Below are positions 2,429 to 37,962 of a stretch of DNA of 58,395 nucleotides, piece after piece. How positions within the stretch are numbered: the stretch's first letter is position 1; every line of letters starts with the position of its first letter. Position numbers and translations under genes: made by a program. The stretch covers positions 1 through 58,395 of the IMG/VR virus record IMGVR_UViG_3300031772_000043; one strand, 5' to 3'. The notes under the pieces are model-generated. The model was given only the letters and a program-made list of their open reading frames with translations, was not told where the DNA came from and did no database searches. Source of the DNA: a virus (Duplodnaviria; Caudoviricetes).

Positions 2429-2445
2429 GAACCCTGCCGATAGTA
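2429..2445 (+). promoter_or_regulatory. conserved 17-bp motif copy 1 (GAACCCTGCCGATAGTA), putative phage promoter
   Basis: One of six near-identical copies; followed by AGGAGG and ATG at 2464. Confidence 0.7.
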
Positions 2446-2463
2446 CAGGGAAAGGAGGTTCAA

Positions 2464-2712
2464 ATGTCGCAAGATCGCGTTTATGCACCGCATAGCTTTG
2501 AGCCTTGGCGTTTGAAGGACTTCGACTTCTGCAACGTGTGTTCGCTGCCCAGGCACAAACACGAGCAGATGTATGAGCCCAACGTAACAGCCACATTGTG
2601 TAATGAGCCTATTGAGGGCTTTGACGACACGGTTTGCGACAAACCAAAGAACCACAAAGAATATGACAATCCGTCGGAGCACACCTGTTCCGGAATCAGA
2701 GGCAACGCATGA
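2464..2712 (+). CDS. hypothetical Cys/His-rich protein
   Basis: AGGAGG RBS before ATG 2464; CxxC and H motifs. Confidence 0.65.
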   Translation: MSQDRVYAPHSFEPWRLKDFDFCNVCSLPRHKHEQMYEPNVTATLCNEPIEGFDDTVCDKPKNHKEYDNPSEHTCSGIRGNA

Positions 2713-3440
2713 CGATAGCTAAGTGTCCTCCGCACCGATTTGCACTTCGTCAGACAACAGGTCGCGAGACATGTATTGATTGTTTTGCGGAGGAGGAGGA
2801 GGAGGAAGACTACGGACCCTACGTAGCAGGCAAAGTTCAGGCAAACAGTGCCGACCGTGTAAGAAAAGCATATTCAGAACTGGGGGCAGCGGTTGAGGCC
2901 TGTGCCAGTGAACTGGAGCGCATGGGTTTTTCGTACAACGATTTATTGAGCCGTCAGGCTGCGCTGGTCGCTACTACACAGGTAGAGACTCGTGTGCGGA
3001 CTATTCGAGAGCTTGCACATGGTCTAGACTCAAGAGCAACCTACGCCGAAGACGGAACGCGGCGTACAAGTGTCCCTTTGCACTCTGTGCAAAGTCTAAC
3101 AGCTTTAGCGGATAGCGTGGAGAAGGGAACTGGGCGCTTGGGTTACAGTCCCGACTACATTAGGACCTTAGAAGCCGTTCTCGTGTCCATTCGGGGCTCA
3201 GGTGCGTGGGCAGCTATAGAGGCAACCGATTCAATCGGTCTTGGCTGTCAGGCAGATGGGCGTGCGGAGTTGCGTGAACACCTGGCTTCTTTGCCCGCAG
3301 ATCTAGAGATCCGAGTCAGAGCGAAGATGTTCAAGCTCGCAGCAGAAGCTTTGTTGTCAGCGCCCCCGGGTCCCGATACCAAAGAACATCATTACGCTTT
3401 CCTTTGTGCTCTCGCAGACAGGCTGGAGCAGAAAACCTGA
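2709..3440 (+). CDS. hypothetical protein
   Basis: 243 aa; ATGA overlap. Confidence 0.7.
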   Translation: MTIAKCPPHRFALRQTTGRETCIDCFAEEEEEEDYGPYVAGKVQANSADRVRKAYSELGAAVEACASELERMGFSYNDLLSRQAALVATTQVETRVRTIRELAHGLDSRATYAEDGTRRTSVPLHSVQSLTALADSVEKGTGRLGYSPDYIRTLEAVLVSIRGSGAWAAIEATDSIGLGCQADGRAELREHLASLPADLEIRVRAKMFKLAAEALLSAPPGPDTKEHHYAFLCALADRLEQKT

Positions 3441-3856
3441 TGTACTCCGAAGACGAATTGATTCAGCAGGTACGCGAGCTTGTGGCTATCGCTGTAGAAA
3501 CGGGAAGAGATCAGGAGCGCCTAAAGACCAAGTTCAACGTGGCCGCGTTCTTTGACAACAAAGCTGCCTGGTCCTCCGCTACATTCGGTCCTGGTGACCG
3601 CTATCAAGGGGTATGCAACCATATCCGAAAAGAGCTTCAAGAAATTGAATCAGACCCCTCCGATCTGACCGAATGGGTAGATGTTGTTCTGCTCGCCATG
3701 GATGGCGCGTGGAGGGCGGCGGGCGCAGACGGAGAGGCTTTCGTTAGGGCCCTCATCGCCAAAGACGAAAAGAACCGCAGCAGAACCTGGTCTGACTGGA
3801 GGACACTTGCTCCAGATGCTGTAAGCGAACATGTGCGAGAGGGAAAAGAGCGATGA
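3440..3856 (+). CDS. DUF550 / MazG-like all-alpha dNTP pyrophosphohydrolase
   Basis: WSSATFG...HIRKELQEI...DLTEWVDVVLLAMDGAWR matches the DUF550 pattern. Confidence 0.75.
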   Translation: MYSEDELIQQVRELVAIAVETGRDQERLKTKFNVAAFFDNKAAWSSATFGPGDRYQGVCNHIRKELQEIESDPSDLTEWVDVVLLAMDGAWRAAGADGEAFVRALIAKDEKNRSRTWSDWRTLAPDAVSEHVREGKER

Positions 3857-4083
3857 ACTTCGAAGCGTTAGCGGACCTCATGGGAGGTAAAATCGAAACC
3901 GAAGGCGAAAAAGACCGTACGATATTTGTCGTGATCGGCACACCAGATAGGAAGGTGCTCTTCCTTCAACGAGAGTGGAACGGTAAAACCGCCTATCTTG
4001 CAAACCCGTCCAAAAAGGAACTTGCGCGAGCGAAGCGAAAGCCCTTTGACATGTTCTCAGAACTACCCAAGAGATTGATGTGA
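3853..4083 (+). CDS. hypothetical protein
   Basis: Translationally coupled 76-aa ORF. Confidence 0.6.
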   Translation: MNFEALADLMGGKIETEGEKDRTIFVVIGTPDRKVLFLQREWNGKTAYLANPSKKELARAKRKPFDMFSELPKRLM

Positions 4084-4316
4084 CCGATACGGAATTTGAT
4101 CCTACCACCTGTGTAACCGCAGGCTCCTTACGTCTAGCAGGGCTGAAGGTCCCGGAAGCGATTCCAGACTGTGCCTGGGTTCCTCGTCACGCAATCTCTC
4201 TTCAGTTATCGGAAGTTGAGACAGCAAATACTGGAGAATTCCGTTTCAAGATCTTCGCTACTTTGAGGGAACCCCTTCGGTGGCTACAAGTAAATTGGCA
4301 CATTGATTTTGGGTGA
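4080..4316 (+). CDS. hypothetical protein
   Basis: Coupled 78-aa ORF. Confidence 0.6.
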   Translation: MTDTEFDPTTCVTAGSLRLAGLKVPEAIPDCAWVPRHAISLQLSEVETANTGEFRFKIFATLREPLRWLQVNWHIDFG

Positions 4317-4328
4317 GGAAGAAAAGCT

Positions 4329-4595
4329 ATGTACCGTGATTCCGATTCCGACACACCCATCAGTGCGTGGATAACTCACACGAGTTCTGGTCACGAAATT
4401 CACATGACCAATGTCAATTCCAAGTTGGGAGACGTTGTAGTATTCCCATTACGCCTTTCGGACGGAGAGTCTCAGCGTCTTCTCTCCGATTTCTATCAGA
4501 TGCTTCGCGGTCAGATGATCTTGCGACTTGGGCTCTTCCCCGCGCCGAAGCGGCCCACGTTCCTCGAACGTCTTCGTTGGCTCTTTTTCGGGTGA
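4329..4595 (+). CDS. hypothetical protein
   Basis: 88 aa; GAGGA upstream. Confidence 0.6.
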   Translation: MYRDSDSDTPISAWITHTSSGHEIHMTNVNSKLGDVVVFPLRLSDGESQRLLSDFYQMLRGQMILRLGLFPAPKRPTFLERLRWLFFG

Positions 4596-4601
4596 ACAAG
4601 T

Positions 4602-4835
4602 ATGGAGCAAGAAAAAGAGTCTCTAACTATCGAAAGAGCGAAGCGTGTCTTGGAACGCGCTGAACGCCGACTAGACTACCATCTTCGTATAGGGGACGCT
4701 CTGGAAGACGAGGCCCGAGACCTGTACTACACGAATATAGATTCTCCCGAAGGAAAGAAGTGGGGTCAGCTGAAAACGAAAGCTTGGCGCCATTTTGTGA
4801 TCGCCGGAGAACTCAGTGGAATTATCAGGAGGTAG
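4602..4835 (+). CDS. hypothetical protein
   Basis: 77 aa, tiles with neighbours. Confidence 0.6.
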   Translation: MEQEKESLTIERAKRVLERAERRLDYHLRIGDALEDEARDLYYTNIDSPEGKKWGQLKTKAWRHFVIAGELSGIIRR

Positions 4836-4838
4836 CGG

Positions 4839-5159
4839 ATGGGAATGAGTGTCGAAGAGTACGAAAAGTGGAAGTCAGCGCATCCTCGCGTAGTGGTAAC
4901 TGAGAACCCTAATGGTGGATGCGTTCTTACTGTTGATGGCGACGAAGTGTGGAGAGACTACACTAGTGAGCCAGAGGACATGTGTCTTACACGCGACCTC
5001 AGTGTTTTCGTGTACACCCTACGCTCCGCGATAGACGAGGCAGAGGTTAGAGGGGCGGACTGGGCTCTCAACGCCCTGGCTCGCAATAGAGGCAGCGTAC
5101 TGCCAGACGGTAAGTTAGCTACGGGTGAAAACGTTTGCCTCATGTACCGCTCAAAATAG
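4839..5159 (+). CDS. hypothetical protein
   Basis: 106 aa; AGGAGG RBS. Confidence 0.65.
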   Translation: MGMSVEEYEKWKSAHPRVVVTENPNGGCVLTVDGDEVWRDYTSEPEDMCLTRDLSVFVYTLRSAIDEAEVRGADWALNALARNRGSVLPDGKLATGENVCLMYRSK

Positions 5160-5169
5160 AAAGCCCCCT

Positions 5170-5850
5170 ATGCAAATTACAGAGGGTAGCTGGGTTCGAA
5201 TTTGTGCAATGGGTGAACCGCGAAGTTCTTTGGCCGGAAGACTGAAGGTGGGCAGTGTGTGGTTGGTTCGTGCGGTCCACGAAGCAAGCTACTCTATTTC
5301 CGGCTCATTGAATGGTTACGTTTACTCCGTTCCAGAGAGTTTAGTACGGCCCTGGATTCCTCGCGCTGACGAGATGGTTCTGATAGGCACGCCTCTATGG
5401 CCGAGAATGTTGGCCTCCGTACACAACCCCAAAGGGACGTGGATGGTCACCTACTACGGGGAACAGCGCACCTTATTTTCTGTGCCCCTTGCTGAAACAA
5501 TCCCCTATCTGGGTCTGGGGAGGATGCCCATAGAAGTTCCGAAAGAGACTCGCGCCGCAGCGGAAGCCCTCAGCAAACAAGTACGCTTTCCCACGGTTTC
5601 CCACTTCCCTTCAACTTGTTTGCGGTGTGGTGCTCCTGCGTACGAAGGGCTCTTTTCTGCCGAGTGTTCTAGGAAGTTCTTGTGCGGAGTCCGTTCCCCT
5701 ACGACAACTCCACAAGTCCGCAAACTCTTGAAAAAGACTCCAATGGGAGCACTGGAAATAGTTTACCAAGCGGAGTTACCCGGCGAACCTCCTCAGGTTC
5801 ACCCAACACGTGAAGGAGCTATTGCTCTATGGCACGAGAGAAACTCATGA
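5170..5850 (+). CDS. hypothetical protein with C-terminal zinc ribbon
   Basis: CLRCG...ECS..LC; start placed at ATG 5170. Confidence 0.6.
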   Translation: MQITEGSWVRICAMGEPRSSLAGRLKVGSVWLVRAVHEASYSISGSLNGYVYSVPESLVRPWIPRADEMVLIGTPLWPRMLASVHNPKGTWMVTYYGEQRTLFSVPLAETIPYLGLGRMPIEVPKETRAAAEALSKQVRFPTVSHFPSTCLRCGAPAYEGLFSAECSRKFLCGVRSPTTTPQVRKLLKKTPMGALEIVYQAELPGEPPQVHPTREGAIALWHERNS

Positions 5851-6212
5851 AACGTACCGCAGTTCTTGAGGAGGCGGCTAATGTTTGTGAGCGCATGGTC
5901 ATTGGTGGTCGTGCGTGGACTGAAGAGCAGTCGATAGCTGCCGCCGCTCTATTTGCAGCGGCAGGTGAAATACGTGCCCTGCCAACTGACAATGAGGACC
6001 CCATGATTGCAACGCTGACTTTCAACCTCCCCGAAGAGCAGGAAGCCTTCGATGCCGCTATGGAAGGACAGGGGGCACGGATCGCTCTTTCTGAGATACG
6101 AACCCATCTTCGAAATAGACTCAAGTACGGAGAGATTAGTGAGGAGGTAAGCAATGAACTTAGAGAGGTTCAGACTCTACTGTTTGATTCTACCGAAGGT
6201 TTAGACCTATGA
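5847..6212 (+). CDS. hypothetical protein
   Basis: ATGA-coupled ORF. Confidence 0.6.
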   Translation: MKRTAVLEEAANVCERMVIGGRAWTEEQSIAAAALFAAAGEIRALPTDNEDPMIATLTFNLPEEQEAFDAAMEGQGARIALSEIRTHLRNRLKYGEISEEVSNELREVQTLLFDSTEGLDL

Positions 6213-7431: not shown

Positions 7432-7455
7432 ACCCTCACGGGTTATTTGCGTTTC

Positions 7456-7797: not shown

Positions 7798-7812
7798 ACC
7801 CTGCTGATAGTA
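7796..7812 (+). promoter_or_regulatory. conserved 17-bp motif copy 2 (GAACCCTGCTGATAGTA)
   Basis: Overlaps the SNase stop codon; precedes the next gene cluster. Confidence 0.7.
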
Positions 7813-8000: not shown

Positions 8001-8008
8001 GCAAAGCT

Positions 8009-26293: not shown

Positions 26294-26635
26294 ATGCGTG
26301 ACTTCAATGGAAAGATCAAAGCAGTAAGTAGGAGAATCGCACACTTGCGTTCCCGCGTTACTGACAACAATGTCAGTGAAAAGTCTGCCGCATATGACAG
26401 GGCTGAAGTTACAGCCCTTTCTGACTTACTTCGTGTGGCCGCTGTGTACAATGACGCCAGAGGACCTGAAGGCTCTCACGTAGAGAACACGCTATACATG
26501 GTTCAGGACGTTATCAGTACCACCCTGGCCAGCACCCAAGACGCACCTACCAAGGAGCGTCTCCAAGAGGCGTGGAATCGGTGCAGTGAGAGCCTAAGAG
26601 TCATCCGAAAAATGGCGGACGATGAAAAGACTTGA
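26294..26635 (+). CDS. hypothetical protein
   Basis: 113-aa ORF. Confidence 0.65.
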   Translation: MRDFNGKIKAVSRRIAHLRSRVTDNNVSEKSAAYDRAEVTALSDLLRVAAVYNDARGPEGSHVENTLYMVQDVISTTLASTQDAPTKERLQEAWNRCSESLRVIRKMADDEKT

Positions 26636-27485
26636 GAGTGTAAGACCCCGATACGTAGTGGTCGATTTCCAGAACACACTCTGGAAATCCTGGATGGTAA
26701 AACCTGCAGCAGGCGAAGACCTCCTCAGGTCCGACGGGTATCCAACAGGACACGTATTTCGTTTCTTTCGCACTATTCACAAGTGGAAACGAGATTTCGC
26801 TGGGCACCTTGTGTTTTGCTACGAGGGAGGGGAACGCTATCGCTACGAGCTATTCCCTGGGTATAAGGCCGGGCGCAAGGACAAAAGTCAAGACTTTGAC
26901 CCCGCACCAGATGTGGTCAAGCTGCTGAGCCTGGTCCGGTGTACTGAGCTAAAACCCGTAGAGGCCGAAGCTGACGACGCTATAGCTGCCTTTGTCTCCA
27001 GGCACCCCGAAGCCAACCATCTAATTTTGAGTTCGGACAAGGACCTGTGGACCTGCAGGGGACCCAACGTTGAGATCGTTTCGTTTCAGGAAATTCTGTC
27101 TGAGAAAGACATCGAAAAATCCTGCGAAAAGCATTTTGGAGTTTTGCCTCACTCTATCACCTTAGCGAAGGCGTTGTTTGGAGATAAGAGCGACGGGTTA
27201 CCCGGAGTCCCCCGACTGCTGAAGAAACACGTGGCAGACGTGCTAAAAACAGCAGAGAGCCCCGACGACTTCTACAAATCCATCGCCAAAGTACCTGCGT
27301 CTACTCGGGATAAGCTGTGGGCCCACGAAGAGCAAGTCAGGAACATGCATCAAGTTGTGCAGCTGCGACGGGACGTAAAACTACGAAAGCGGGAACGTGA
27401 AGGGGATGAAAGCGCTCTGCGCCGGTTCCTGACCACCTTCGAATGTGCTTCGTTGGTGCCTCACGCTAAGTTTATGTGCACGTAG
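26622..27485 (+). CDS. 5'-3' exonuclease / flap endonuclease (PolI N-terminal / T4 RNase H-like)
   Basis: YKAGR, EADD, SSDKDL and GDKSDGLPGV. Confidence 0.9.
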   Translation: MKRLESVRPRYVVVDFQNTLWKSWMVKPAAGEDLLRSDGYPTGHVFRFFRTIHKWKRDFAGHLVFCYEGGERYRYELFPGYKAGRKDKSQDFDPAPDVVKLLSLVRCTELKPVEAEADDAIAAFVSRHPEANHLILSSDKDLWTCRGPNVEIVSFQEILSEKDIEKSCEKHFGVLPHSITLAKALFGDKSDGLPGVPRLLKKHVADVLKTAESPDDFYKSIAKVPASTRDKLWAHEEQVRNMHQVVQLRRDVKLRKREREGDESALRRFLTTFECASLVPHAKFMCT

Positions 27486-27507
27486 ACTTGTCCTGTAAAA
27501 CAGCGCT

Positions 27508-27807
27508 ATGGCGACTGCTGTAGAGTTCCAAAACGTGCTAGAATTAGTCCAGCACCTTTGCGAGGAGTTGGTGGATGATCCCGATTCTGTAGAGGTAGTT
27601 GGGGCATACGTGGGAGTGACTGGAGCCATCCAGATCACGGGGCCCACCAGTGAGATCGCCAAGATCATCGGTTCCAACAAGGCCAGAATTTCAGCAATAG
27701 AGTCCATAGTCGGTGCAGTATCGGCTAAGTATGGATTTCGCGTCTTGCTGAACGTGTTGAACAACGAGAAAAAGCGTGCGCTAGAAGAGGGTCACGAAGA
27801 TGTCTAA
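27508..27807 (+). CDS. KH-domain protein, KhpA-like
   Basis: LVDDPDSVEV...AKIIG...AIESIV matches KhpA layout and size. Confidence 0.7.
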   Translation: MATAVEFQNVLELVQHLCEELVDDPDSVEVVGAYVGVTGAIQITGPTSEIAKIIGSNKARISAIESIVGAVSAKYGFRVLLNVLNNEKKRALEEGHEDV

Positions 27808-28249
27808 GAGGGAAAGTACCGCAACGATAGTCAAGTTTCAGCGTTTGAACCCAGATGCCGTCATTCCTGAGAAGGCATCTTTAGGCGCCGCAGGCTTCGA
27901 CCTTGTCTCTGTGGAAGACGCCACCATCAAACCCATGGATCGCGCCGTCATCAGCACCGGTATCGCAATGGAGGTTCCGCCTGGGTTCGAGGCGCAGGTG
28001 CGCCCCCGCAGTGGCCTAGCTGCCAAGTATGGGGTAACCGTGCTGAATTCTCCAGGCACCATCGATTCAGACTACAGGGGCGAGGTCAAGGTCATCCTGC
28101 AGAACTTCGGACCTACGTTTGTTGTCAAGAAGGGCGAACGAATTGCCCAAGTGGTAATTCAGCGCGTACCTTCCATCCAATTCGAGACCGTCGAAGAGCT
28201 TACCGATACAACCCGAGGTACTGGCGGTTTAGGCAGTACAGGACGATAA
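27800..28249 (+). CDS. dut: trimeric dUTPase
   Basis: AGFDL, RPRSGLA, GTIDSDYRGE, RIAQ and RGTGGLGSTG. Confidence 0.95.
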   Translation: MSKRESTATIVKFQRLNPDAVIPEKASLGAAGFDLVSVEDATIKPMDRAVISTGIAMEVPPGFEAQVRPRSGLAAKYGVTVLNSPGTIDSDYRGEVKVILQNFGPTFVVKKGERIAQVVIQRVPSIQFETVEELTDTTRGTGGLGSTGR

Positions 28250-30975
28250 TGGGCGACAGCCCAGAGAAGACGAAGCTCTGCGTTCTGAATAACGTTCTGT
28301 GGGTCCCCACCCAGTACGTAGATCAAGACGTAAAAGAAGAGTTTACTTACCGATTCGAAGAGATCGAATACCAACCCATGTTGGACCTCCCCCAGAAGTG
28401 CGCTAATTGCGAACTTTGGGGTAAAAAGTGGAGACCAGGTTCGATGACGTGTGCCCAGAAGGGATACACGCTAGAGGATATCTGCAAGAGCTTCAGCCAC
28501 AAGAAAATGCCGGTTTCCAAGGAAATCGTACTCAAGACGTACCGAGAGCGCCACGACGGATGGACTCAGTTTGCCCGCGGAGACCTGGGAAAAATTCGAA
28601 GGTGTTTCCGGGAACTTGGGATTGATGATCAACGAGTTGCGCCGGAATTGGGGTTTGACCTGACCTGTCACCGGGCGCTGTATGAGGAGCAACAGCAGGT
28701 AGCGGAGGCCTGGCTCAAGAAGGGCTACGGACTTATTCAGGCTCCGACGGCATGGGGGAAGTGTCTCGGACGCGGTACTCCTGTACTAATGTACGATGGC
28801 AGCACCAAGGCTGCCGAAGACGTCCAAAAGAACGACCTTCTGATGGGCCCAGACAGCCTGCCACGTCGAATTGTTTCCACGGTGCAAGGGAGAGAACCCA
28901 TGTACCGTGTGACGCCAAAAAAGGGTGATCCATACGTAGTTAACGAGTCACACATATTGTCTCTGAAACTGAGTAAATCCAAAGGTTCAGACAGTGTCGA
29001 CTTAGTAAACATCAGCGTAAAAGACTACCTGAAGAAAAACAAGTGGTTTAAGCACCGCGCTAAGGGCTGGAGAGCCGCTATAGATTTCCAGTCGGGCGCT
29101 CCACTGCACCCTGATCTTCCTCCTTACTTGTTGGGAATATGGCTAGGTGATGGAGCTTCAAAGTTACCGGCTGTCACCTCCGCAGACCCTGAAATTGTGG
29201 AGATGTTGCAAGAGTATGCGAGTACACGTGGTCTAAGTCTTCGTGTGGATGCATCGGGTGGTAGGTGTCCGACATATCACGTCACGACCAAGTCAGTAGG
29301 GCGGGCGTATCGAGCCAATGCCCTGGTGAACGCACTCAAGGACCTTGGACTGTGGGCCAACAAGCACATTCCTCACCAGTACAAGACAGCGTCTAGAAAT
29401 GATAGGCTACAGCTTCTGGCGGGGCTAATAGACTCTGACGGGCATTTGAAACTTGGTGGGGGTTACGATTTCATATCCAAAAATGAGTCGCTTGCTGACG
29501 CTTTGTGCTTCGTAGCTAGGTCGTTAGGCCTGGCTGCGTACAAACAGGAATGCCGTAAACGGTGTACTAACAACGGCGTGGAGGGAACCTACTATAGAGT
29601 GGGCCTGTCCGGAAACGTAGGTATCATACCGTGTCGAGTTTCCCGGAAGACGTCTGTTATCCCGAGAACTACTAAGAAAGACCCCCTTGTCGTGGGGATC
29701 AAAGTAGAACCTATTGGAGATGGTGACTATTTTGGTTTCGAAATAGAGGGACCTGACCGACTATTCCTTCTAGGTGACTTCACTGTCACTCACAACACTG
29801 TCGTGTGGGCGTGGTTAGTCGCACGCCTAGGCTATCGAGTGATTCTACTTGCTCAGGAAGTACGACATCTCATGGTCGGCTTCGAAGGACTATACGAACA
29901 CACGAATATCGCAGAGCTAGAGGAAGCCCACGGAGAACACCTGATCGGGGTCCTCAACAAAGACTGGTCTTGGGGCAAGGATCAGGATGGGACCCGAATA
30001 CGTAAGTTCGTGGACCGACCCGGCAAGTATTATCCGATTACGTTTGCCACCTTCCAATCATTGGCGTCCAAGCGCGGCGTGAAGATGCGGAAGAAGTTGA
30101 AGAATTACTTCGGACTGGTTTGGTGTGAAGAGTGTCACCATGAGTCCGCGCCTACCTTTCACGCTGCCACTAAGTCATTCAACGCCAAGTATCGTGGGGG
30201 TCAGACGGCTACCCCTTCGCGCAAGGACCAAACTCATGTTGCCATCTTCGATACCCTGGGCCCGGTTACAGCCCGTGGGCACAAGGAGCAACTAACTCCG
30301 ATCGTGAAATTTCACGCCACGAACATCCATGTTCCAGACAGCGTATTTCGTGGTCGATACATCATACCGATGCTGGTCAACTTCTTAGCCCGAAACGCCC
30401 ACTACCAGGATTGTCTCTACGAAGAGATCATGAAGGAATGCGAAGAGGGTCGAAAGATTCTGGTCGTCACCGAACGCCGAAACCAGGCGATGAGACTACG
30501 GCAGAAAATCAAACTCCAAGGCCATGGGTGTGAACTCATGATTGGCGGCCAGAAGCTCAAGGAACAGAACTGGTACGCGGAAGAACTTATGTCGGGAAGG
30601 CTGAGTGTCATCATAGGTACTCAGGTGATCAACGAGAACGTGAACATCCCGCCTCTTGACTCCATCCACCAGCCCTTCCCGAACTTTGGCAAAGAGCGAG
30701 AAGAGCAACGAGTGGGAAGAATTAGAAGACCTCTTTCTTCCTCAAACCTCGCCTACCTTCAAGACAACAACATCGTGTGGGAGAAGCCACAGCCTAGAGT
30801 ACACGTCTACACGTGGTATTCGGGGCACAATATGGCGGGCTCCGCAGTTGGGTTTCGAGAGAAACTCTACAAGAAGTGGGGGTTCACCTTTGACCAGCCG
30901 GTGGAAGAACTTCCAAAAAAGCGACGCGCCAAGACCATGAAGGACTGGCTAGAAGAGTTCAAGGGCGATGAGTAA
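28249..30975 (+). CDS. SF2 (UvsW/Rad25-like) helicase containing an intein
   Basis: APTAWGK/T Walker A, EECHH motif II, TATP motif III, QRVGRIRR motif VI. Confidence 0.85.
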   Translation: MGDSPEKTKLCVLNNVLWVPTQYVDQDVKEEFTYRFEEIEYQPMLDLPQKCANCELWGKKWRPGSMTCAQKGYTLEDICKSFSHKKMPVSKEIVLKTYRERHDGWTQFARGDLGKIRRCFRELGIDDQRVAPELGFDLTCHRALYEEQQQVAEAWLKKGYGLIQAPTAWGKCLGRGTPVLMYDGSTKAAEDVQKNDLLMGPDSLPRRIVSTVQGREPMYRVTPKKGDPYVVNESHILSLKLSKSKGSDSVDLVNISVKDYLKKNKWFKHRAKGWRAAIDFQSGAPLHPDLPPYLLGIWLGDGASKLPAVTSADPEIVEMLQEYASTRGLSLRVDASGGRCPTYHVTTKSVGRAYRANALVNALKDLGLWANKHIPHQYKTASRNDRLQLLAGLIDSDGHLKLGGGYDFISKNESLADALCFVARSLGLAAYKQECRKRCTNNGVEGTYYRVGLSGNVGIIPCRVSRKTSVIPRTTKKDPLVVGIKVEPIGDGDYFGFEIEGPDRLFLLGDFTVTHNTVVWAWLVARLGYRVILLAQEVRHLMVGFEGLYEHTNIAELEEAHGEHLIGVLNKDWSWGKDQDGTRIRKFVDRPGKYYPITFATFQSLASKRGVKMRKKLKNYFGLVWCEECHHESAPTFHAATKSFNAKYRGGQTATPSRKDQTHVAIFDTLGPVTARGHKEQLTPIVKFHATNIHVPDSVFRGRYIIPMLVNFLARNAHYQDCLYEEIMKECEEGRKILVVTERRNQAMRLRQKIKLQGHGCELMIGGQKLKEQNWYAEELMSGRLSVIIGTQVINENVNIPPLDSIHQPFPNFGKEREEQRVGRIRRPLSSSNLAYLQDNNIVWEKPQPRVHVYTWYSGHNMAGSAVGFREKLYKKWGFTFDQPVEELPKKRRAKTMKDWLEEFKGDE
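28762..29796 (+). mobile_element. intein with LAGLIDADG homing endonuclease (345 aa)
   Basis: Starts CLGRGTPVLMYDG, ends VTHN followed by Thr; internal LLGIWLGDG and LAGLIDSDG. Confidence 0.95.
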
Positions 30976-31123
30976 CGATGCGTTGTGGTTCACCCTCAGG
31001 TGGACAGGGTCTGGGTACATAGTCGGCGTGGGGTTGATGTGTACGGACTACTTCTATCTGCAGACTGCGGGCTGGTGCCTGTTAGTAGCGGCGTCGGTGG
31101 CGTTTCTAGCTCGGACAAAATAG
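30968..31123 (+). CDS. small membrane protein
   Basis: 51-aa hydrophobic ORF (MSNDALWFTL...) filling the gap; not in the supplied ORF track. Confidence 0.5.
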   Translation: MSNDALWFTLRWTGSGYIVGVGLMCTDYFYLQTAGWCLLVAASVAFLARTK

Positions 31124-31132
31124 GAGTGTAAG

Positions 31133-31780
31133 ATGAGCCGCAAGAGCAGCAAGGAAGTTTTCTTTAGCCTCGACATAGAGGCAGATGGGCCCATTCCAGT
31201 TAGAAACTCGATGCTATCTCTGGGGGCCGTAGCTTTTGACGAGACCGGAGCCGAGGTCGGATACTGGGAAGCCAACCTGGCCCCCTTACCCGGGGCGGCG
31301 CAAGATGAGCGCACGATGCGTGATTTTTGGAACAAGAACCCTGAGGCCTGGGCGTACTGCACATCCAACGTTCAGGACCCGGCTGTAGCCCTTCCCGCCT
31401 TTGTGCAGTGGGTGAATTCAGTCGGAGCCGACAAGCAAAAAGTAGCGGTAGCTTTTCCCTCGGGCTTTGATTTCACGTGGATCTACATGTACTTGATGAT
31501 GTTCGGAGGGCAGAGTCCCTTTAGTTTCTCGTGTATCGACATCAAGTCTTACGTGTCCGCCATGAGGCGTGCTCCTTACCGTGATTGTAGTAAGCGTACC
31601 TGGCCCGCGCGCTGGTTCGAACCCAAGTTGAAGCACACGCACAAGGCCGTGGACGACGCCAGAGAGCAGGGTCTCTCCTTCATGAAGATGAGAGCCGAAA
31701 ATCTGTCTCCGTCTACAGACGGGATCGTTTATGAGATCGGTCTCGTGTCCAACAATTTCTGGGACAGCCAAAAGCCATGA
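31133..31780 (+). CDS. DEDDh 3'-5' exonuclease
   Basis: DIEADG, FD and HKAVDDA motifs. Confidence 0.85.
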   Translation: MSRKSSKEVFFSLDIEADGPIPVRNSMLSLGAVAFDETGAEVGYWEANLAPLPGAAQDERTMRDFWNKNPEAWAYCTSNVQDPAVALPAFVQWVNSVGADKQKVAVAFPSGFDFTWIYMYLMMFGGQSPFSFSCIDIKSYVSAMRRAPYRDCSKRTWPARWFEPKLKHTHKAVDDAREQGLSFMKMRAENLSPSTDGIVYEIGLVSNNFWDSQKP

Positions 31781-32343
31781 GGTCGGGCCGTAGAACACAA
31801 GACTACCATCTGATCAAGACACAAGCTGACGCTCTGTTCTATGCAGCAGACATCCCGTCAACTGCCTGGGGTCCGCTCCTTACGGAGGAACCTCGATTCA
31901 AGCTAGTTGTGTTAGACGACAACAACGTCTCCCCGAAAACGCAGGCTGAGTGGTTTGCCCGGCTCAGGGAAAAGGAGTTTTTCAGCCATCCCTACCTTAT
32001 CCTTATCTCTTCGGATGTGGACGACTCGCTCTCCACCGGCATCGGCTACGACATCATGAAGAGAGCGTTGTCCAAAGAGATCAGAGTTCAGATTACGGAG
32101 TCGTCCCGGATTTCTACGGAGGTCGTAAACGAGGAAACCGTGTTCATGCTTACAAACCTGACTGATGAGGCTCCGCCCGAGCGCATCCAGTCAGCGCGAG
32201 ACTGGTGCTATCGACACCAAACTTGCTTTCGTTTGATTTGCGCTACCGGGGACCCAGCTAGTCTTCTGCGCCGAATGAAACTCAAGTTCAACGCAGCTTT
32301 TTACTTGGACTCTAGGATAGTCGTAGAGAAAACACTCGCATGA
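31777..32343 (+). CDS. hypothetical protein (possible degenerate helicase loader)
   Basis: Coupled to dnaB; no intact Walker A, so the loader idea is positional only. Confidence 0.5.
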   Translation: MRSGRRTQDYHLIKTQADALFYAADIPSTAWGPLLTEEPRFKLVVLDDNNVSPKTQAEWFARLREKEFFSHPYLILISSDVDDSLSTGIGYDIMKRALSKEIRVQITESSRISTEVVNEETVFMLTNLTDEAPPERIQSARDWCYRHQTCFRLICATGDPASLLRRMKLKFNAAFYLDSRIVVEKTLA

Positions 32344-33671
32344 AGATCATTCGTCCCAAGTCAGAAACAAAAGCTATTCTCTCCTGTCTCCAGAGCAATA
32401 ATAAGGTAAAGACAGAATTGCTGGGCAGGCTGTCGCCAGACCACTTTGGTTACCGGCCCATGAACAACGCGTTCCGTATCATCGAAAAGATGATGACGCA
32501 TTCGGCCCTGGACCTGCCCTCCATGGAGACCTTCCTAGAGTCTCCAGAACTAGATCAAGAGACAGCAGACCTCCTCAAGGCGCCCACCGTCAGCCCCATC
32601 CAGAAGCCTGATGATGCTCGTCGCCTAGTAGACATCCTGGAGCACTACCGGGTTGTCAGAAGGTTTTACCAGTTTAGTCAGGGAACCATATCAGAGCTGA
32701 AGCAAGCGACAACTGTCGATTTGTCTGCCCTGATGGGAGACATGGAATCGTGCTTGAGCGATATGAGGTCAGACGCTGACGAAGCGCCGTTGTACCACGT
32801 CGGAAAGGGTGCAGAGGATGCGGACTCAGACCTGCTGATGGAGGAAGTGTTTTCGAACGATGTGGTCAAAATCATCCCGAGTACCTTCGGCAACTTTGAT
32901 CGCATCGCGGGCGGGTTTGGTCTAACAGACCTGTTCATCCCTGCCTCACACAAGAAAGGGGGTAAATCAATCCTGACGCTAAACATGACGGCAAACATGT
33001 ACACGCTCAACAACGTGGACGTGATCTACATCCCTCTTGAAATGAGCAAGCAGGAGACGGCAGAGCGACTTATTTCTCGCCTGTCTGGAGTGGAGCATAC
33101 CCGCATCCGCACGAAGACTACATCTTCTACGGAAATAAGCATCATGCAGAAGGCATGGCGCAGGTTCAAGGCGCATGGCCAAAAACATGGATGCCGGTTC
33201 ACTGTTTGGCCTGCGTCACACGTCACGATCCCCCACCTTCGACTAAAGCTGAAGCCGTTCAAGTACAAAGTCATTGTCATTGACTACATCAATCTTCTCG
33301 ACCATCCTCACGCAGACAAGCTTCAGGAGTGGCAGAAGCTCAACGAGCTTGCACGAGAACTGAAGCTCCTTACCAAAGACCTGGAGGCGCTCATCATAGC
33401 TCCTACCCAGATGAATGAGGACGGGTCTTTGCGCTACGCTAGAGGCCTTGCAGAGCACGCAAACACTGTGTGGACCTGGAAATACGGCGAAGAAGAACAG
33501 GGAACTCACATTATTACGATTGACCAGCCTGCAGTACGAGGCTGGGCACCCTTCAAGTTTCAGCTTCTAGAAGACTTTTCTAGAATGGCTATTTCGGACC
33601 ACCACGGGGGAGACCCCGATTTTGATATGGGCAAGAAAACAAAGGTAGACACTATGAAAGGAATTCGTTGA
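32340..33671 (+). CDS. dnaB: DnaB-like replicative helicase
   Basis: GGKS Walker A, LEMS, IVIDYINL, LK.L.K.L...II..TQMN. Confidence 0.85.
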   Translation: MKIIRPKSETKAILSCLQSNNKVKTELLGRLSPDHFGYRPMNNAFRIIEKMMTHSALDLPSMETFLESPELDQETADLLKAPTVSPIQKPDDARRLVDILEHYRVVRRFYQFSQGTISELKQATTVDLSALMGDMESCLSDMRSDADEAPLYHVGKGAEDADSDLLMEEVFSNDVVKIIPSTFGNFDRIAGGFGLTDLFIPASHKKGGKSILTLNMTANMYTLNNVDVIYIPLEMSKQETAERLISRLSGVEHTRIRTKTTSSTEISIMQKAWRRFKAHGQKHGCRFTVWPASHVTIPHLRLKLKPFKYKVIVIDYINLLDHPHADKLQEWQKLNELARELKLLTKDLEALIIAPTQMNEDGSLRYARGLAEHANTVWTWKYGEEEQGTHIITIDQPAVRGWAPFKFQLLEDFSRMAISDHHGGDPDFDMGKKTKVDTMKGIR

Positions 33672-33672
33672 G

Positions 33673-33891
33673 ATGCCGAAGGACTCACACGTTCAGATCA
33701 CTGGGACTATCAGTGACGTTCATCCTGGAGGGCAGTTCGCTGTTACTCTGGAGACAGGGATTAGTGTAACTGCCCGTCTCTGTGGGAAGATGCGCAAAAA
33801 CAGAATCCGGGTTATCTTGGGAGACACAGTGGAGGTTTCACTATCTCCATATGACCTAACCCACGGAATTGTAACATTTCGGCATAAGTAA
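33673..33891 (+). CDS. infA: translation initiation factor IF-1
   Basis: GKMRKNRIRVILGD.V.V.LSPYDLT.G.VTFR, 72 aa. Confidence 0.95.
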   Translation: MPKDSHVQITGTISDVHPGGQFAVTLETGISVTARLCGKMRKNRIRVILGDTVEVSLSPYDLTHGIVTFRHK

Positions 33892-34112
33892 TGCGACCCA
33901 CCCTCGCTCATTGCGGCAAATGCAACGCTCAGGTGTCTATCCTTTCTAAGGAAAGGGCGCCGACTACTTGTCCCCTATGCAAGCAGTCGTTGAGGTTTGA
34001 GACATTCGGCGTCTGTGCTTCCTGTCAGTGTAAAGTGGGCAAGGGTGTCATAAAGTGTGAAGCGTGTAAACTGACTACAGACCCGTCCTATGCGGGAAAA
34101 CCTCCCAGGTGA
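33891..34112 (+). CDS. Cys-rich zinc-ribbon protein
   Basis: Four CxxC pairs. Confidence 0.65.
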   Translation: MRPTLAHCGKCNAQVSILSKERAPTTCPLCKQSLRFETFGVCASCQCKVGKGVIKCEACKLTTDPSYAGKPPR

Positions 34113-34115
34113 GTC

Positions 34116-34361
34116 ATGCAGGTACAGTGTAAAAACTGCGGTTTCAACGGTTCGTTTGTAGGCGGCGTAGGCGAGCGGCCAACAACGTGTCCCGTTTGTC
34201 GTACAGCCTCTTTGGCCTATCCCGTGCCCACAACTGCTTGCCTCCAGTGTAATACGAATTTCCCTACGCCTGACCCTACGTGCCCTGCGTGCGGTGTAGA
34301 CCGGCTAACTAGAGGGCGTTCCGTAGAAAACCCGACGGCTGCCCCTCAGCCTATCAAGTAG
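34116..34361 (+). CDS. Cys-rich zinc-ribbon protein
   Basis: Four CxxC pairs. Confidence 0.65.
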   Translation: MQVQCKNCGFNGSFVGGVGERPTTCPVCRTASLAYPVPTTACLQCNTNFPTPDPTCPACGVDRLTRGRSVENPTAAPQPIK

Positions 34362-34366
34362 GTTTC

Positions 34367-34756
34367 ATGCCAAATTTTGTGTCTCCGTCTCAGTTACTTC
34401 GCAAGAAGTACGAAGTGCGCAAGCATGACATCGTAAAGGCAGCGCCGATTCCCGTAAGCGAGATATGTAATTCTTGCTGGTACAGGGACATGTGCATCTT
34501 TAGGACTCTTTTACGCCAACCTCCTAGGACATGCTGCGTATACGAGCTTTTCGGGGACCAAGGCAAGCAAGAGACCACCATTGAAGAGCTTGTAAAGTTC
34601 ACATGCGATAATCGTTGCGTAACCCGCAGGACATGGGTAGGGGACCCGTGCCCTCACGACGCTAGCTACTGTGAAAATCACTGCCCCGTCTCGAAGCACA
34701 TCATGGGAACAGGGCCCTCAAAGGCAGATGATGTGCCTTACGAAAGCTTCGGATGA
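34367..34756 (+). CDS. Cys-rich hypothetical protein
   Basis: Ten Cys in two clusters. Confidence 0.6.
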   Translation: MPNFVSPSQLLRKKYEVRKHDIVKAAPIPVSEICNSCWYRDMCIFRTLLRQPPRTCCVYELFGDQGKQETTIEELVKFTCDNRCVTRRTWVGDPCPHDASYCENHCPVSKHIMGTGPSKADDVPYESFG

Positions 34757-35211
34757 CCCATTTCTTTCCAGTTCGACAGAGTTACGACTTTGTACAGCCC
34801 AACATTGCGATGGGTGGGGCAGTGTTAGACTCTACCGCACTGTTTGAGGAGTTTGACATTATCGTGATGTGCGCTGGCGAGTGGCAGCCCACCCTTACGT
34901 TGCCGGAAGACCGCACAAAACGGGTCATTCGCCTACCATTTGACGACACCTATGAGGCTCTCATTCCTAGCGTCCTTCGTTCGCTCCACCTAACGGCAAA
35001 CGAGTTGGTGGCGCAGCACAAGACCGGAAAAAGAATCCTCATCACGTGTATGGCAGGCCGAAATAGAAGCGGAATTCTAGCAGGGCTAGTGCTCATGAAA
35101 CGATTTGGCATGTCAGGCGATGAAGCCATTCTAGTGATCCGAGATGCGCGTGGGCCTGCTGCTCTGTCAAACCCCTCTTTCTCCTCCTACCTCCAGAGTC
35201 TTCACCTATGA
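34753..35211 (+). CDS. dual-specificity (CX5R) phosphatase
   Basis: ILITCMAGRNRSG. Confidence 0.85.
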   Translation: MTHFFPVRQSYDFVQPNIAMGGAVLDSTALFEEFDIIVMCAGEWQPTLTLPEDRTKRVIRLPFDDTYEALIPSVLRSLHLTANELVAQHKTGKRILITCMAGRNRSGILAGLVLMKRFGMSGDEAILVIRDARGPAALSNPSFSSYLQSLHL

Positions 35212-36284
35212 AAATTACACTAGAAGGTCCCGCGTTTAGGGATGCCATGAAGACTGCCGCCGTCCTCTTTGACGCGGAGATTGAGGTACTCGTAACGGCA
35301 GACGCGGCTGCCGGGACGCTGGTCCTGGAATCCGGTCGAAATGGTGTGTACTGCAAACAGAGTATTGAAGCAGACGTGGAAGAAGAAGGAGCTATAGTTC
35401 TGTCTTGTGCTCACTTCTCAACCTTAGCGTTTCAGGAACAGTTGTATCTCGAATCCGACGGCAAGCACATCGAGTTTCGGTCGGGCAAGTTCAAGGGCAC
35501 CGTGGCTGGCAGCGCGGATGGAGGGGCCATCGAGGCGCAGCGTCCGGAAAAGCTGTTCAAGGTGACCGCAACCCTCCCTACTGACATTTTCAGGTCCGCT
35601 GTCGCTCGCGTAGCTTTCGGGTCTGCGCTCCCCGGTGCGCAGGCTGGAATTAGGGTTCAGGCCGCAGACAAGCTGACGGTCTCCACCACAGACCAATACC
35701 GAGCCACTCTCTACAAAGAAGACCTGGCTGTGCATCAGGCTGAGTTCGATATTCTGCTGCAGCCCGTGTTCCTGAATACAATCTTGGGCAGGATTCAGGA
35801 CATGGAGGTAGGACTCGGAGCCTCCAGAGGTACGTTTAGAATTCGCACCTTGGGGTTAGATGTGTTCCACCCAGCGATCCAATCCAAGCCCGAAGACATC
35901 GAAGAGTGGATTACCAACGGCATCGACCACAGTAAACGAATCTGTGCGGTGACCTCTACGGCAGAGGAGTTCGCGCAGGCCCTAAGAGAGGTGTCTTCCA
36001 TCCACATGGGGGCGCTGTCCTATGACACGCATGTTGACTGCATGATCAAAGGCGACAAAATTCATATGAGATGCACGGCGGACCACGGCAGTGTTACCAC
36101 CTCTCTTGCGCTGCAGAAATCAGACGCGGAGAAGTTTTTGACGAAGCTGTCTTCCCGCTACACAATGGAACTAATGAACCTGATCAAAGCTGGACCTATT
36201 GAAATCGAATTCTGGGCAGACTTTATCCTTGTTTCTGGGCTCTCAGGAAAATTCAAGGGTCTAATCCCCACGGTCGCCGCCTGA
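35208..36284 (+). CDS. DNA sliding clamp (DnaN/beta-like)
   Basis: 358 aa with three-domain size; VSTTDQYR resembles the beta-clamp ATDGHR; C-terminal LIP; replication context. Confidence 0.65.
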   Translation: MKITLEGPAFRDAMKTAAVLFDAEIEVLVTADAAAGTLVLESGRNGVYCKQSIEADVEEEGAIVLSCAHFSTLAFQEQLYLESDGKHIEFRSGKFKGTVAGSADGGAIEAQRPEKLFKVTATLPTDIFRSAVARVAFGSALPGAQAGIRVQAADKLTVSTTDQYRATLYKEDLAVHQAEFDILLQPVFLNTILGRIQDMEVGLGASRGTFRIRTLGLDVFHPAIQSKPEDIEEWITNGIDHSKRICAVTSTAEEFAQALREVSSIHMGALSYDTHVDCMIKGDKIHMRCTADHGSVTTSLALQKSDAEKFLTKLSSRYTMELMNLIKAGPIEIEFWADFILVSGLSGKFKGLIPTVAA

Positions 36285-36688
36285 TGCTAAAAGATCTATC
36301 CATACCTTGGAACACGCTTCCCGAGGGTAAGGTCGTCTGTCAGACGCCTTTGCTCTGGGTTGTGCGTACCGGCGTGGTAGTGAACAAGCCTAAGAGACAG
36401 AAGAAGTTCGAAGACGGAAACATTCTGCTATCTCTGATGGAGGGCGAGACGAACTCTGTTTTAGGCTATGTCCTGCAGCCTAAAAAAGAGTTTCATGCGG
36501 TATTCTGTCAGGAGTCTTACGTGTCCTTCCTGGCTGAAGTGGAGGGGCACACAACTCCTAAAGTCCTATACAAGGATCAAAAGGTATACCTCTACCGATT
36601 CAACTCGAACAAGGCACCCAGTTACTGGTTCTTGGTGCGCAACAGGATCACAGCTATTCCGGCCACTCCAGAAGTAGAACAGAGTTAA
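36284..36688 (+). CDS. hypothetical protein
   Basis: TGATG-coupled, 134 aa. Confidence 0.65.
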   Translation: MLKDLSIPWNTLPEGKVVCQTPLLWVVRTGVVVNKPKRQKKFEDGNILLSLMEGETNSVLGYVLQPKKEFHAVFCQESYVSFLAEVEGHTTPKVLYKDQKVYLYRFNSNKAPSYWFLVRNRITAIPATPEVEQS

Positions 36689-36690
36689 AC

Positions 36691-37434
36691 ATGCCTAAGA
36701 AATGTATTGTGCTGGATATCGAGTCAGTTCCGGCACATGCTGCAGTGTTAGACGAAAAGGGTCACGACTTCGCCCTCCCTATCTTTCACCGCATTGTATG
36801 TCTGTCCTACGCAGTTCTGGATGGGTCTTTCAAGGTGACTGAAGTGGGTACGTTGGGCCTGAACCGGCAGTCAGAAGAAGACGCTATCCGCCACCTGTCG
36901 TCCTTGATCGACAAAGACACGATGATTGTAACGTGGTCGGGACGCAGGTTCGACATGCCGGTATTTCTTTACCGGGCACTTGCCTACGGCATCCCGTGCC
37001 CGTGGTACTTCAAGAATGAATTCGACAAGAGATTCACTCTAACAGGACATTTCGACCTGCAGGACAACATGATGCTGTTCGGGGCTGCGGATAAAATTCG
37101 GCTAGACCACGCTGCTGCCGTTATAGGGTTGCCAGGGAAGATGGACGTAGCTGGCGCTGACGTAGCAGACTTGTGGGCCCGAAATAGATTTTTGACCATT
37201 GGTACCTACTGCGTAACCGACGTAATTCAAACTGCAATCCTGTTTATACGCTGGGCTTTTCTTCGCGGGCTAGCTACTGCAGACGAAGTTAACGGGGCGC
37301 TAAACTCAATTGCGTCTTATCCCTCTACGACTTATCTACCAACTGACGCCGCTTCACTCGTGTCTGTCGCAGAAGGCATCAAAAAAGTAGTTAGTAATTG
37401 CGACTGGGACTCTCTCAAGATCGTCAAGAGATAG
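36691..37434 (+). CDS. PolB-related stand-alone 3'-5' exonuclease (DEDDy)
   Basis: LDIES, WSGRRFD, HFDL, LPGK and YCVTDV. Confidence 0.8.
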   Translation: MPKKCIVLDIESVPAHAAVLDEKGHDFALPIFHRIVCLSYAVLDGSFKVTEVGTLGLNRQSEEDAIRHLSSLIDKDTMIVTWSGRRFDMPVFLYRALAYGIPCPWYFKNEFDKRFTLTGHFDLQDNMMLFGAADKIRLDHAAAVIGLPGKMDVAGADVADLWARNRFLTIGTYCVTDVIQTAILFIRWAFLRGLATADEVNGALNSIASYPSTTYLPTDAASLVSVAEGIKKVVSNCDWDSLKIVKR

Positions 37435-37452
37435 ACCCGACCGAGGAAATAA

Positions 37453-37962
37453 ATGTCCATCTCCTGGGACGAGAATCAACTCCCCGCCCTAATCAGCTGG
37501 ATCGAGAGTCAACTTCCCCTACAGCAGGGAGAGTTGGCCGTCCTGTCCATGGACATTCCAGAGAATTGCTTTGCAGGTCAAGTTGACCTAGAGGAAAAAG
37601 AGTTCCAAGTTTTCACTAACATCAATAGCCCTATGACCGACACCACAGTGAATGTCGTCTTGGCTTACATTGTAACCATGGCTTTTGATAAGAACGGATG
37701 GGAACCAGCTCCGGCCTCCGAAGTTTTGTTTGACTGCCATCGCCAGGTGTGTCAGACTCTTTTGGAGTTCAACGAAGATTTCTCAAAGCACGTAGAAGAG
37801 TGCTGGGATATTCTTGAAGCTTGGCACACGACACACGCGAGCCCCGATGCGACACCTACGACAACGACAGCCCCAGCAACAGACTCAGAAAGTCTAGTTG
37901 AAGAGATGGGTGCGTCTTTGTTCAGGTTGAACCCTGCCGATAGTAAGGGTTACGTCAACTAG
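37453..37962 (+). CDS. hypothetical acidic protein
   Basis: GAGG RBS, 169 aa. Confidence 0.65.
   Translation: MSISWDENQLPALISWIESQLPLQQGELAVLSMDIPENCFAGQVDLEEKEFQVFTNINSPMTDTTVNVVLAYIVTMAFDKNGWEPAPASEVLFDCHRQVCQTLLEFNEDFSKHVEECWDILEAWHTTHASPDATPTTTTAPATDSESLVEEMGASLFRLNPADSKGYVN
37929..37945 (+). promoter_or_regulatory. conserved 17-bp motif copy 6 (GAACCCTGCCGATAGTA)
   Basis: Inside the 3' end of the upstream CDS, 40 nt before tRNA-Gln. Confidence 0.7.

Follow-up and report, generated by a model that had tools for sequence, protein, structure and literature searches.

The 58,395-nucleotide stretch analysed here (the window) is a whole linear IMG/VR record, IMGVR_UViG_3300031772_000043 (G000), rated 15% complete, and is a 58-kb piece of a giant phage. 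A 17-bp word, GAACCCTKCYGATAGTA, is repeated at six gene borders on its + strand, and these repeats are almost certainly a phage-specific promoter class, as judged from comparison of related genomes. It would serve one class of genes, namely accessory genes, part of the replication genes and tRNAs, in an uncultured clade of phages of ~390-420 kb. The geometry is likely that of a sigma-type promoter, and on balance we lean slightly towards the full statement that the promoter is read by the host polymerase with a sigma factor of the phage. The copy number, strand bias, placement and conservation of the word, its variants in other lineages and the strain breakpoints at its copies were observed directly. 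A phage-specific promoter is of an already known kind; it is not unusual, and useful rather than surprising.

The repeated 17-mer in the window and in a complete relative

Exact matches to GAACCCTKCYGATAGTA were found at 2429, 7796, 12716, 15867, 26237 and 37929, all on the + strand, and none of 100 shuffled windows held any match. Only positions 8 (G/T) and 10 (C/T) vary among the six copies, the other 15 of 17 being invariant. In an anchored alignment the copies form a sharp 17-bp island amid otherwise unrelated flanks, with one base before it (C/T) and the purine-rich bases after it weakly kept. A search of both strands with three mismatches allowed gave no additional copy (in shuffles, 0.46 on average and 3 at most). 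The six scored 21.2-31.8 bits with a weight matrix derived from the copies of a complete relative, described below, and the next-best match in the window, at 10.0 bits on the - strand, equals shuffle noise (0-3 matches of at least 8 bits in each of 20 shuffles). From the motif end to the next start there are 18, 59, 16, 81, 40 and 40 nt, the last being the distance to a tRNA. A first-pass annotation of the window had listed six copies at these positions in a common orientation with 15 invariant positions, had placed them at gene boundaries or over the 3' end of the upstream gene, 16-81 nt before a start codon or tRNA, and had seen none in the - strand block; all of this is borne out by the searches and measured distances. 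The copies and the features that they head are as follows (ORF, open reading frame; SD, Shine-Dalgarno sequence; scores in bits from the weight matrix).

2429..2445, + strand: copy 1, GAACCCTGCCGATAGTA, 18 nt 5' of the ATG at 2464 (82-aa ORF, SD AAGGAGG); 28.6 bits
7796..7812, + strand: copy 2, 59 nt 5' of the ATG at 7872 (42-aa ORF), its start falling inside the stop codon of an endonuclease-like ORF (7447-7797); 27.0 bits
12716..12732, + strand: copy 3, 16 nt 5' of the ATG at 12749 (157-aa ORF), its first base 2 nt after the stop of ORF 12193-12714; 31.5 bits
15867..15883, + strand: copy 4, 81 nt 5' of the GTG at 15965, heading a cluster with an AAA ATPase (16621-17883); 29.4 bits
26237..26253, + strand: copy 5, GAACCCTTCTGATAGTA, 40 nt 5' of the ATG at 26294, overlapping the last codons of ORF 25775-26248 directly 3' of - strand genes, and heading an 11.7-kb replication block (5'-3' exonuclease, dUTPase, intein-bearing helicase, DnaB, PolB-type exonuclease); 21.2 bits
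26294..37962, + strand: replication gene block 3' of copy 5, with no further copy before 37929
37929..37945, + strand: copy 6, within the last 11 codons of ORF 37453-37962 and 40 nt 5' of the tRNA-Gln pair (37986); 31.8 bits
37986..38144, + strand: tRNA-Gln(UUG) and tRNA-Gln(CUG), the first genes 3' of copy 6

The replication block at 26294..37962 is presumably one long transcription unit. The idea of a tRNA 3' end or attachment site, for which GGTTCGAACCC looked T-arm-like, was dropped, the upstream bases not being conserved.

A search of IMG/VR with the exact pattern gave 12 loci, of which 5 lie on one record (G001; 392,328 bp, rated complete) and the others are singletons. A looser pattern gave at least 123 loci and, among the 80 matches listed, more than one locus was seen only on G001. 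In G001, for which positions are given in reverse-complement coordinates (g1rc), a degenerate pattern with up to three mismatches matched 73 copies on one strand and 1 on the opposite one, the reversed-pattern control matching 1 and 1. The first-pass annotation had proposed a scan of related phages, and in G001 the scan returned 72 copies on one strand versus 0 on the other with the consensus, and 76 versus 3 with the weight matrix. The consensus of the 72 copies is y-GAACCC-t-g-c-C-GATA-n-T-A-R, in which GAACCC, GATA and T are essentially invariant and the base right after the motif is a purine in 62 of the 72.

The window is collinear with g1rc 50.7-104 kb, with 64-89% nucleotide identity and gene-by-gene protein matches. 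Copies 12716, 15867, 26237 and 37929 align to g1rc 51361, 60057, 71411 (4 mismatches) and 83251 at the same gene borders, where they stand as islands amid flanks with many substitutions and indels, and within the syntenic interval all four G001 copies map one-to-one to window copies. The site at g1rc 83251, counterpart of copy 37929, lies 21 nt 5' of a tRNA-Gln. The part of the window around copies 2429 and 7796 has hardly any counterpart in G001, and none was identified positionally for 7796.

Random placement relative to genes, which had been named beforehand as grounds for giving up the promoter, is not what G001 displays: an SD and start codon (at least 35 codons) follow within 60 nt in 51 of the 72 copies, compared with 22% of 2000 random positions. 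Other copies stand 14-22 nt before tRNA genes (tRNA-Glu, tRNA-Gln(UUG) and a tRNA with CUA anticodon); since tRNAs as well as protein genes are preceded, the motif would be a transcription signal, not tied to translation. Thirty-four copies are concentrated in the first 32 kb of G001, a region of many small ORFs. No copy occurs within g1rc 123-208 kb, which holds the primase, ribonucleotide reductase, sigma, SSB, UvsX, baseplate, fibre and DNA polymerase genes, nor in the - strand virion block. Copy 26237 and the G001 copy 122469 are located at - to + strand switches.

The CUA-anticodon tRNA of G001 (L054:5653-5726, - strand of the locus) lies 22 nt 3' of its motif copy, in a 20-kb stretch with 20 tRNA genes. 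It is a Pyl tRNA according to ARAGORN and of amber-suppressor type. The long ORFs of G001 read normally under code 11, and general TAG recoding is not evident.

Lineage variants and proposed promoter geometry

A protein search with the exonuclease gave two further relatives, both without the window's motif. One genome, G003 (423,825 bp, with terminal repeats, rated complete), has a 17-mer of its own, cAAAGTCCGnCGAT(A/G)nTA(R), with 49 copies on one strand and 0 on the opposite one (control 0 and 0). G006 (388,485 bp, rated complete), which was found through its sigma protein, has cCAACCCTGGcCA(T/C)ACTA(R), with 49 forward and 10 reverse copies (control 1 and 0). The words of G000/G001, G003 and G006 are of equal length and register, and the three variants can be written as GAACCCTGcCGATAnTA, AAAGTCCGnCGATRnTA and CAACCCTGGcCAYACTA. 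Common to them are A at positions 2-3, C6, G8, mostly C10, A12, T16 and A17, followed by a purine. With GATAnT numbered -12 to -7, the kept bases become G-15, mostly C-13, A-11, T-7 and A-6.

The sigma-bearing fragments G002, G005 and G007-G009, searched with two patterns, gave no enrichment or no match, and the sigma-bearing G004, searched with the window consensus only, gave no motif. A de novo motif search in G002, a 164-kb fragment, returned nothing. At 53898-54010 of G002 (L223) a 26-bp unit is repeated in tandem three to four times, each time with a motif-like CCCCACTGATGATAGTA, which could be a lineage variant or an unrelated repeat. Separately, TCTAAA is strongly depleted across G003, with 4 and 7 copies versus ~54 expected per strand, and is not depleted in G001 or G002.

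In the proposed geometry, motif positions 11-16 (GATAnT) would form the -10 hexamer (-12 to -7), G-15 and C-13 an extended -10, and GAACCCT (-22 to -16) a lineage-specific upstream block in place of a -35 box. When tested as a -10 element, GATAnT in G001 carries its A in 72 of 72 copies and its T in 72 of 72 with a free fifth base, and A and T are present in 49 of 49 copies both in G003 and in G006. A-11 and T-7 are described, in the available portions of PMC7598289 and PMC12784957, as the two bases flipped out by sigma70-type factors. GCCGATAn of G000/G001 coincides, in equal register, with the sigma28 -10 consensus GCCGATAA at -15 to -8, the element being given as (-15)GCCGATAA(-8) in the accessible text of PMC12784957; the fit is partial in G003 (CGnCGATA), and G006 gives no match (GGCCATAC). 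Over the 72 G001 copies there is no conserved -35 box, the upstream columns holding at most 0.3 bits except for the adjacent pyrimidine (0.68 bits), and a sigma28-type -35 (TCTAAAG/TAAAG) at fixed spacing was likewise not found over these copies. The first-pass annotation had set the motif apart from a sigma70 -35/-10 pair. This stands as regards the -35 box, and has to be amended as regards the 3' part, GCCGATAnT, which is of -10 type with A-11 and T-7 invariant.

The position of gene starts gives a hint of where transcription may begin. In a pool of 127 sites (6 from the window, 72 from G001 and 49 from G003), ORF-opening ATGs (at least 50 codons) after the motif number 0 at +5 and +6, 6 at +7, 1 at +8 and 6 at +9, and a second peak extends from +16 to +22 with 10 at +19, the expectation being 0.70 per offset; upstream of nearly all of these ATGs the open frame is short. 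Such an onset is compatible with a start 7-9 nt past the T of GATAnT, in which case some transcripts would be leaderless or almost so and many would have short SD leaders. The predicted start lies 6-8 nt after the motif (window positions p+22 to p+24), and leaders would then either measure 0-5 nt or be short and contain an SD, in many cases with a hairpin at the 5' end.

A terminator-like hairpin (2368..2392, + strand; a 10-bp stem, then a T-run) lies 36 nt 5' of copy 1, with a folding energy of -22.3 kcal/mol and a z of -4.06, and none of 200 shuffles was as stable. Several G001 and G003 copies have a GC hairpin, a T-tract and CGTTTAAG 5-11 nt upstream, and the other five window copies are without a hairpin. 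In three lineages GC-rich terminator hairpins are followed by the CGTTTAAG box (GTTAAG in G006), often 3-11 nt before a motif copy; the box was seen at G001 g1rc 1222-32070 and G003 g3rc 297-423485. It is conserved beyond the need of a terminator tail and may, for some of the promoters, act as a weak -35-like element; as a late promoter it was rejected, being the terminator tail. Small hairpins are also found in the leaders after 15867 (15884-15930) and 26237 (26254-26293). In comparison with their G001 counterparts (g1rc 60074-60110 and 71428-71465) the stems display paired changes, CCCGA/TCGGG versus CCTGC/GCAGG and GTCTC/GAGAC versus CCTCC/GGAGG, which look compensatory, but the hairpins are no more stable than shuffles (z 0.05 and -0.76) and were set aside.

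Taken together, the same-strand copies in G001, the four of six conserved sites, the two variant 17-mers, the SD-led genes and tRNAs downstream and the sites following terminators lend support to the first-pass proposal of a phage-specific promoter at the head of + strand clusters, among them accessory genes, the replication block and the tRNA-Gln pair. Promoter activity, start site, reader and timing are what we infer from these observations.

The candidate reader and competing explanations

The reader is proposed to be the host RNA polymerase core with the clade's own sigma factor, which in G001 would be a protein of 450 aa with group 1/2-like regions 2-3 and a short or divergent region 4.2 end, encoded outside the 58-kb window. 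G001 has exactly one sigma70-family gene, matching phrog_351 at 2.4e-20, with Sigma70_r2 at residues 242-307. The alignment of the protein with SigA, SigB and RpoS begins at region 1.2/2 and does not go beyond the first half of region 4.2, and Pfam found no region 4 in it. Orthologs 40-68% identical occur on seven other IMG/VR records, and one sigma factor was present in every searched relative covering that part of the genome. Among them regions 2.3-3.0 are nearly invariant, SSNTWQHYAK is invariant, and beyond ERLRQ every one of them has a short or divergent C terminus. Where sigma28 has R80, the phage sigma keeps the WW pair of group 1/2 sigmas. Jumbo phages lacking an RNA polymerase usually encode sigma homologues, thought to direct the host core to phage promoters, as far as the available portions of PMC7598289 and PMC13282480 state. 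A sigma factor whose region 4 end is short or divergent fits a promoter devoid of a -35 box.

Several observations weigh against this assignment. The window, 15% of the genome, holds no sigma gene, and the sigma gene never carries the motif: in G001 and G003 it lies in a long motif-free stretch, the G003 gene (~113 kb) being flanked by copies at 52,439 and 172,719, and in G006, where the copies on the strand of the sigma gene were mapped, the nearest one listed is ~36 kb upstream of it. The sigma factor must therefore come from another promoter or be delivered first, and this prior need fits early-looking genes awkwardly. G001, G003 and G006 differ in -12 and the 5' block of the motif, yet hardly at all in sigma regions 2.4 and 3.0, so that sigma domains 2-3 alone cannot explain the lineage specificity; either the bases from -22 to -16 are read by other parts of sigma or by a second phage factor, or the reader differs altogether. 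The absence of the motif from six sigma-bearing records is also counted here; five of these are fragments that contain the surroundings of the sigma gene, a motif-poor region in G001, which makes the absence uninformative. As to the start, the SD begins only 3 nt after the motif in two G001 copies, where a start at +7 would cut it, the purine after the motif (62 of 72) also fits a start at that base, and a pyrimidine/purine (Y/R) signal at offsets 22-23 arises partly from a repeated leader, GGCGAGGAGG. The sole RNA run found, metatranscriptome X15 (share 0.07), consists of short contigs that cannot show 5' ends; on window positions 1-20000 it gives at least 8 pieces, 33-248 nt long and from both strands, with a depth of 2-6, which are uninformative as to starts, strand and expression.

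In a competing explanation the promoter is read by a sigma factor of the host, either of FliA/sigma28 type or the housekeeping one, alone or with a small phage co-factor, the phage sigma then serving a different (late) class. The identity of GCCGATAn with the sigma28-class -10 consensus in the same register speaks for this, as do the lack of a motif promoter at the sigma gene itself and the position of the promoter before small accessory genes that are seemingly expressed first (34 copies within 0-32 kb of G001); in three lineages a GTT(T)AAG box also precedes some of the copies by 3-11 nt, at about the place of a -35. However, GTT(T)AAG is found at variable distance and no -35 is conserved over all copies. 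The 7-bp upstream block is rich in information and differs by lineage, for which a universal host sigma would have no need. In G006 CCATAC replaces CGATA, whereby the CGA core of sigma28 is lost, and -12 is G or C, not T as in housekeeping promoters. Moreover, -35/-10 pairs of E. coli type show no enrichment in the window, with 8 found against 10.2 expected. A host sigma as the reader is rather unlikely in our judgement.

We consider it improbable that the motif belongs to an unrecognised polymerase or factor, phage-encoded or virion-delivered and T7/N4-like, that would start at the purine after the 17-mer. Such a reader would suit a contiguous, non-palindromic 17-bp block in which the 5' letters vary by lineage, the A/T-rich 3' end is constant and a purine comes next, and it would suit the two G001 copies with an SD 3 nt after the motif. 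A candidate is the 2,637-aa ORF (41074-48987, - strand), whose giant conserved product of unknown function heads the virion gene block in all relatives. It is conserved lengthwise in four of them (L266, L267, L268 and L269; 2,440-3,283 aa, 24-51% identity), with conserved parts at residues ~150-1140 and 1440-1910, and has an acidic N-terminal run and a coiled-coil stretch at ~1085-1315. Its nearest feature clusters in the Atlas are phage sigma70-family, at a score of only 0.82 that is often reached by shuffled proteins. Against this candidate, no match was obtained in Pfam, PHROG, NCBIfam, PDB or GenBank phages, no DxDGD motif is present, direct comparison with the phage sigma was negative, and the hhalign profiles gave 0.2% probability. 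Six-frame searches of G000 and G001 with PF00940 and PF00562 were empty, with the limit that the PF00940 control matched nowhere, and PHROG RNA polymerase families were found in none of the 80 scanned out of 92 G001 ORFs of at least 330 aa nor in the 63 window ORFs. For an 826-aa ORF of G001, which has the size of T7 polymerase, the Atlas points to a tail or tape-measure protein, and this candidate was discarded. Sigma geometry is the better fit both to the pattern of invariance (A-11 and T-7 fixed, -8 free) and to gene starts that set in at +7.

A related suggestion is that the motif is read at time zero by a virion-borne factor, the giant protein or the sigma, which would be injected together with the DNA and steer the host polymerase to the 17-bp word, whose -22 to -16 block differs between sister lineages. 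This is highly improbable in our estimate; if true, it would explain both a sigma gene without the promoter and the dominance of the promoter at the accessory-gene end of the genome.

Cassette joints, gene surroundings and known systems

Contigs of the DNA run X3, from a population 90-99% similar to the window, stop matching at 7794, 12733 and 15884 and continue with other sequence; these breakpoints are the edges of three of the four copies compared, and they come from three single contigs of one run, among the ends listed (28 further loose ends). An assembly artefact is unlikely, as the 17-bp motif is shorter than the 31-letter words of the assemblies. In the comparison of genomes, the extra ORF 12193-12714 of G000 stops 1 nt before copy 12716 and G001 has none there, and a 3.5-kb segment present only in G001 follows the first gene 3' of this copy. 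Because the same 17 bases stand at many gene borders, they also serve as joints for the exchange of cassettes between related phages. Promoter-early stem-loop (PeSL) cassettes of T4-like phages were reportedly described by Arbiol in 2010. Where related phages share a promoter, homologous recombination is expected to leave breakpoints, as for the T4 PeSLs in the accessible part of PMC4122927 (Comeau, 2014). A highly improbable reading, that the motif is no promoter at all and is instead an RNA processing or antitermination signal, or a recombination or homing site at cassette borders, would accommodate the sense-strand, intergenic position of all copies, the breaks of strain contigs and of the G000/G001 comparison at or beside the motif and the homing-type endonuclease genes nearby (7447-7797 and 20371-21321). 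Against it, such breaks are to be foreseen for a shared promoter, some copies follow terminator-like hairpins where little RNA would arrive, others stand at - to + switches without an upstream co-directional gene, the motif by itself does not fold, the distances to starts and tRNAs are those of a promoter, and four of six sites are stably inherited at orthologous borders.

Around the copies, the + strand of the window from ~2.4 to 40 kb contains many small ORFs without family matches, together with the AAA ATPase, a DNA methylase, the 5'-3' exonuclease, dUTPase, the intein-bearing helicase, DnaB and the PolB-type exonuclease; there are 3 tRNAs in the window. The - strand block at 40-58 kb opens with the 2,637-aa ORF and has almost no family matches. 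GenBank phages gave no nucleotide match to window positions 26000-46000, and DnaB is only 28-30% identical to that of Lu11, PaBG, RSL1 and similar phages. The annotated 'promoter' of Lu11 is a joined multi-site feature and yielded no comparable sequence. The 908-aa helicase gene (28249-30975, + strand) is interrupted by an intein that includes a LAGLIDADG homing endonuclease (Hint and Hom_end domains, residues 172-455); the best segment of the G001 ortholog matches residues 517-908 only, and the intein there may be absent or different. At 23135-25802, inside the + strand block, two real - strand genes without a motif copy encode an SbcD-like exonuclease (450 aa, 71% identical to G001) and a 393-aa unknown protein. 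The promoter of this pair, like that of the virion block, is of another kind; in a search for a second, 'late' motif, ATCTAAA-type candidates picked by eye were not enriched.

Hardly any promoters of giant phages without a polymerase have been defined, according to the available portions of PMC7598289 and PMC13282480. A literature search for the letters of the motif gave one irrelevant match only, and one on jumbo-phage sigma promoters yielded nothing beyond reviews and other systems. The promoter class described here is defined from sequence alone, for an uncultured clade of phages of ~390-420 kb that were sampled in sediment and estuaries. It provides an operon map for annotation and compact candidates for orthogonal promoters, and the three natural specificity variants are material on how a sigma-type promoter may dispense with a -35. 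It would also be a further case, outside the T4 group, of a shared promoter marking the joints of gene exchange.

The late promoter of phage T4, TATAAATA, is read by gp55, and the early promoters of T4 use the host sigma70. Promoters of a single block read by phage sigma factors include the phiEco32 gp36 sites, TAATGTATA, and those of phage 7-11, tgTGATGTTATA, in the accessible portion of PMC4331800. As in phiEco32, 7-11 and the T4 late class, the motif described here is a contiguous, phage-specific word around -10 without a -35, it is over-represented in coding-strand intergenic DNA, and it occurs in phages with a sigma of their own and no RNA polymerase found. In contrast to those words of 8-12 bp, it extends over 17 bp and reaches -22 with a lineage-specific block, and it heads accessory, replication and tRNA genes, not virion genes; the sigma putatively linked to it is of group 1/2 type with 450 aa, not small and ECF-like or gp55-like. 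T7-type promoters resemble it as a contiguous block of ~17 bp whose upstream letters depend on the lineage and whose A/T-rich 3' end is constant, with a purine after it, whereas no such polymerase was found in the complete relative, and the invariance and the onset at +7 fit a sigma -10. The likeness to sigma28 promoters (FliA/SigD/WhiG) lies in the register of GCCGATAn in G000/G001, with G-15, G-12 and A-11, and the difference, set against the available text of PMC12784957, in the lack of a fixed-spacing -35, in the invariant T-7, in G006 without the CGA core and in the WW pair in place of R80. With the T4 PeSLs, as presented in the accessible part of PMC4122927, it shares the combination of a terminator hairpin and a conserved promoter at the borders of variable genes, with genome differences ending at the element. 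It differs from them in promoter sequence and probably in reader, in belonging to a ~400-kb clade and in having the hairpin at one of the six window copies.

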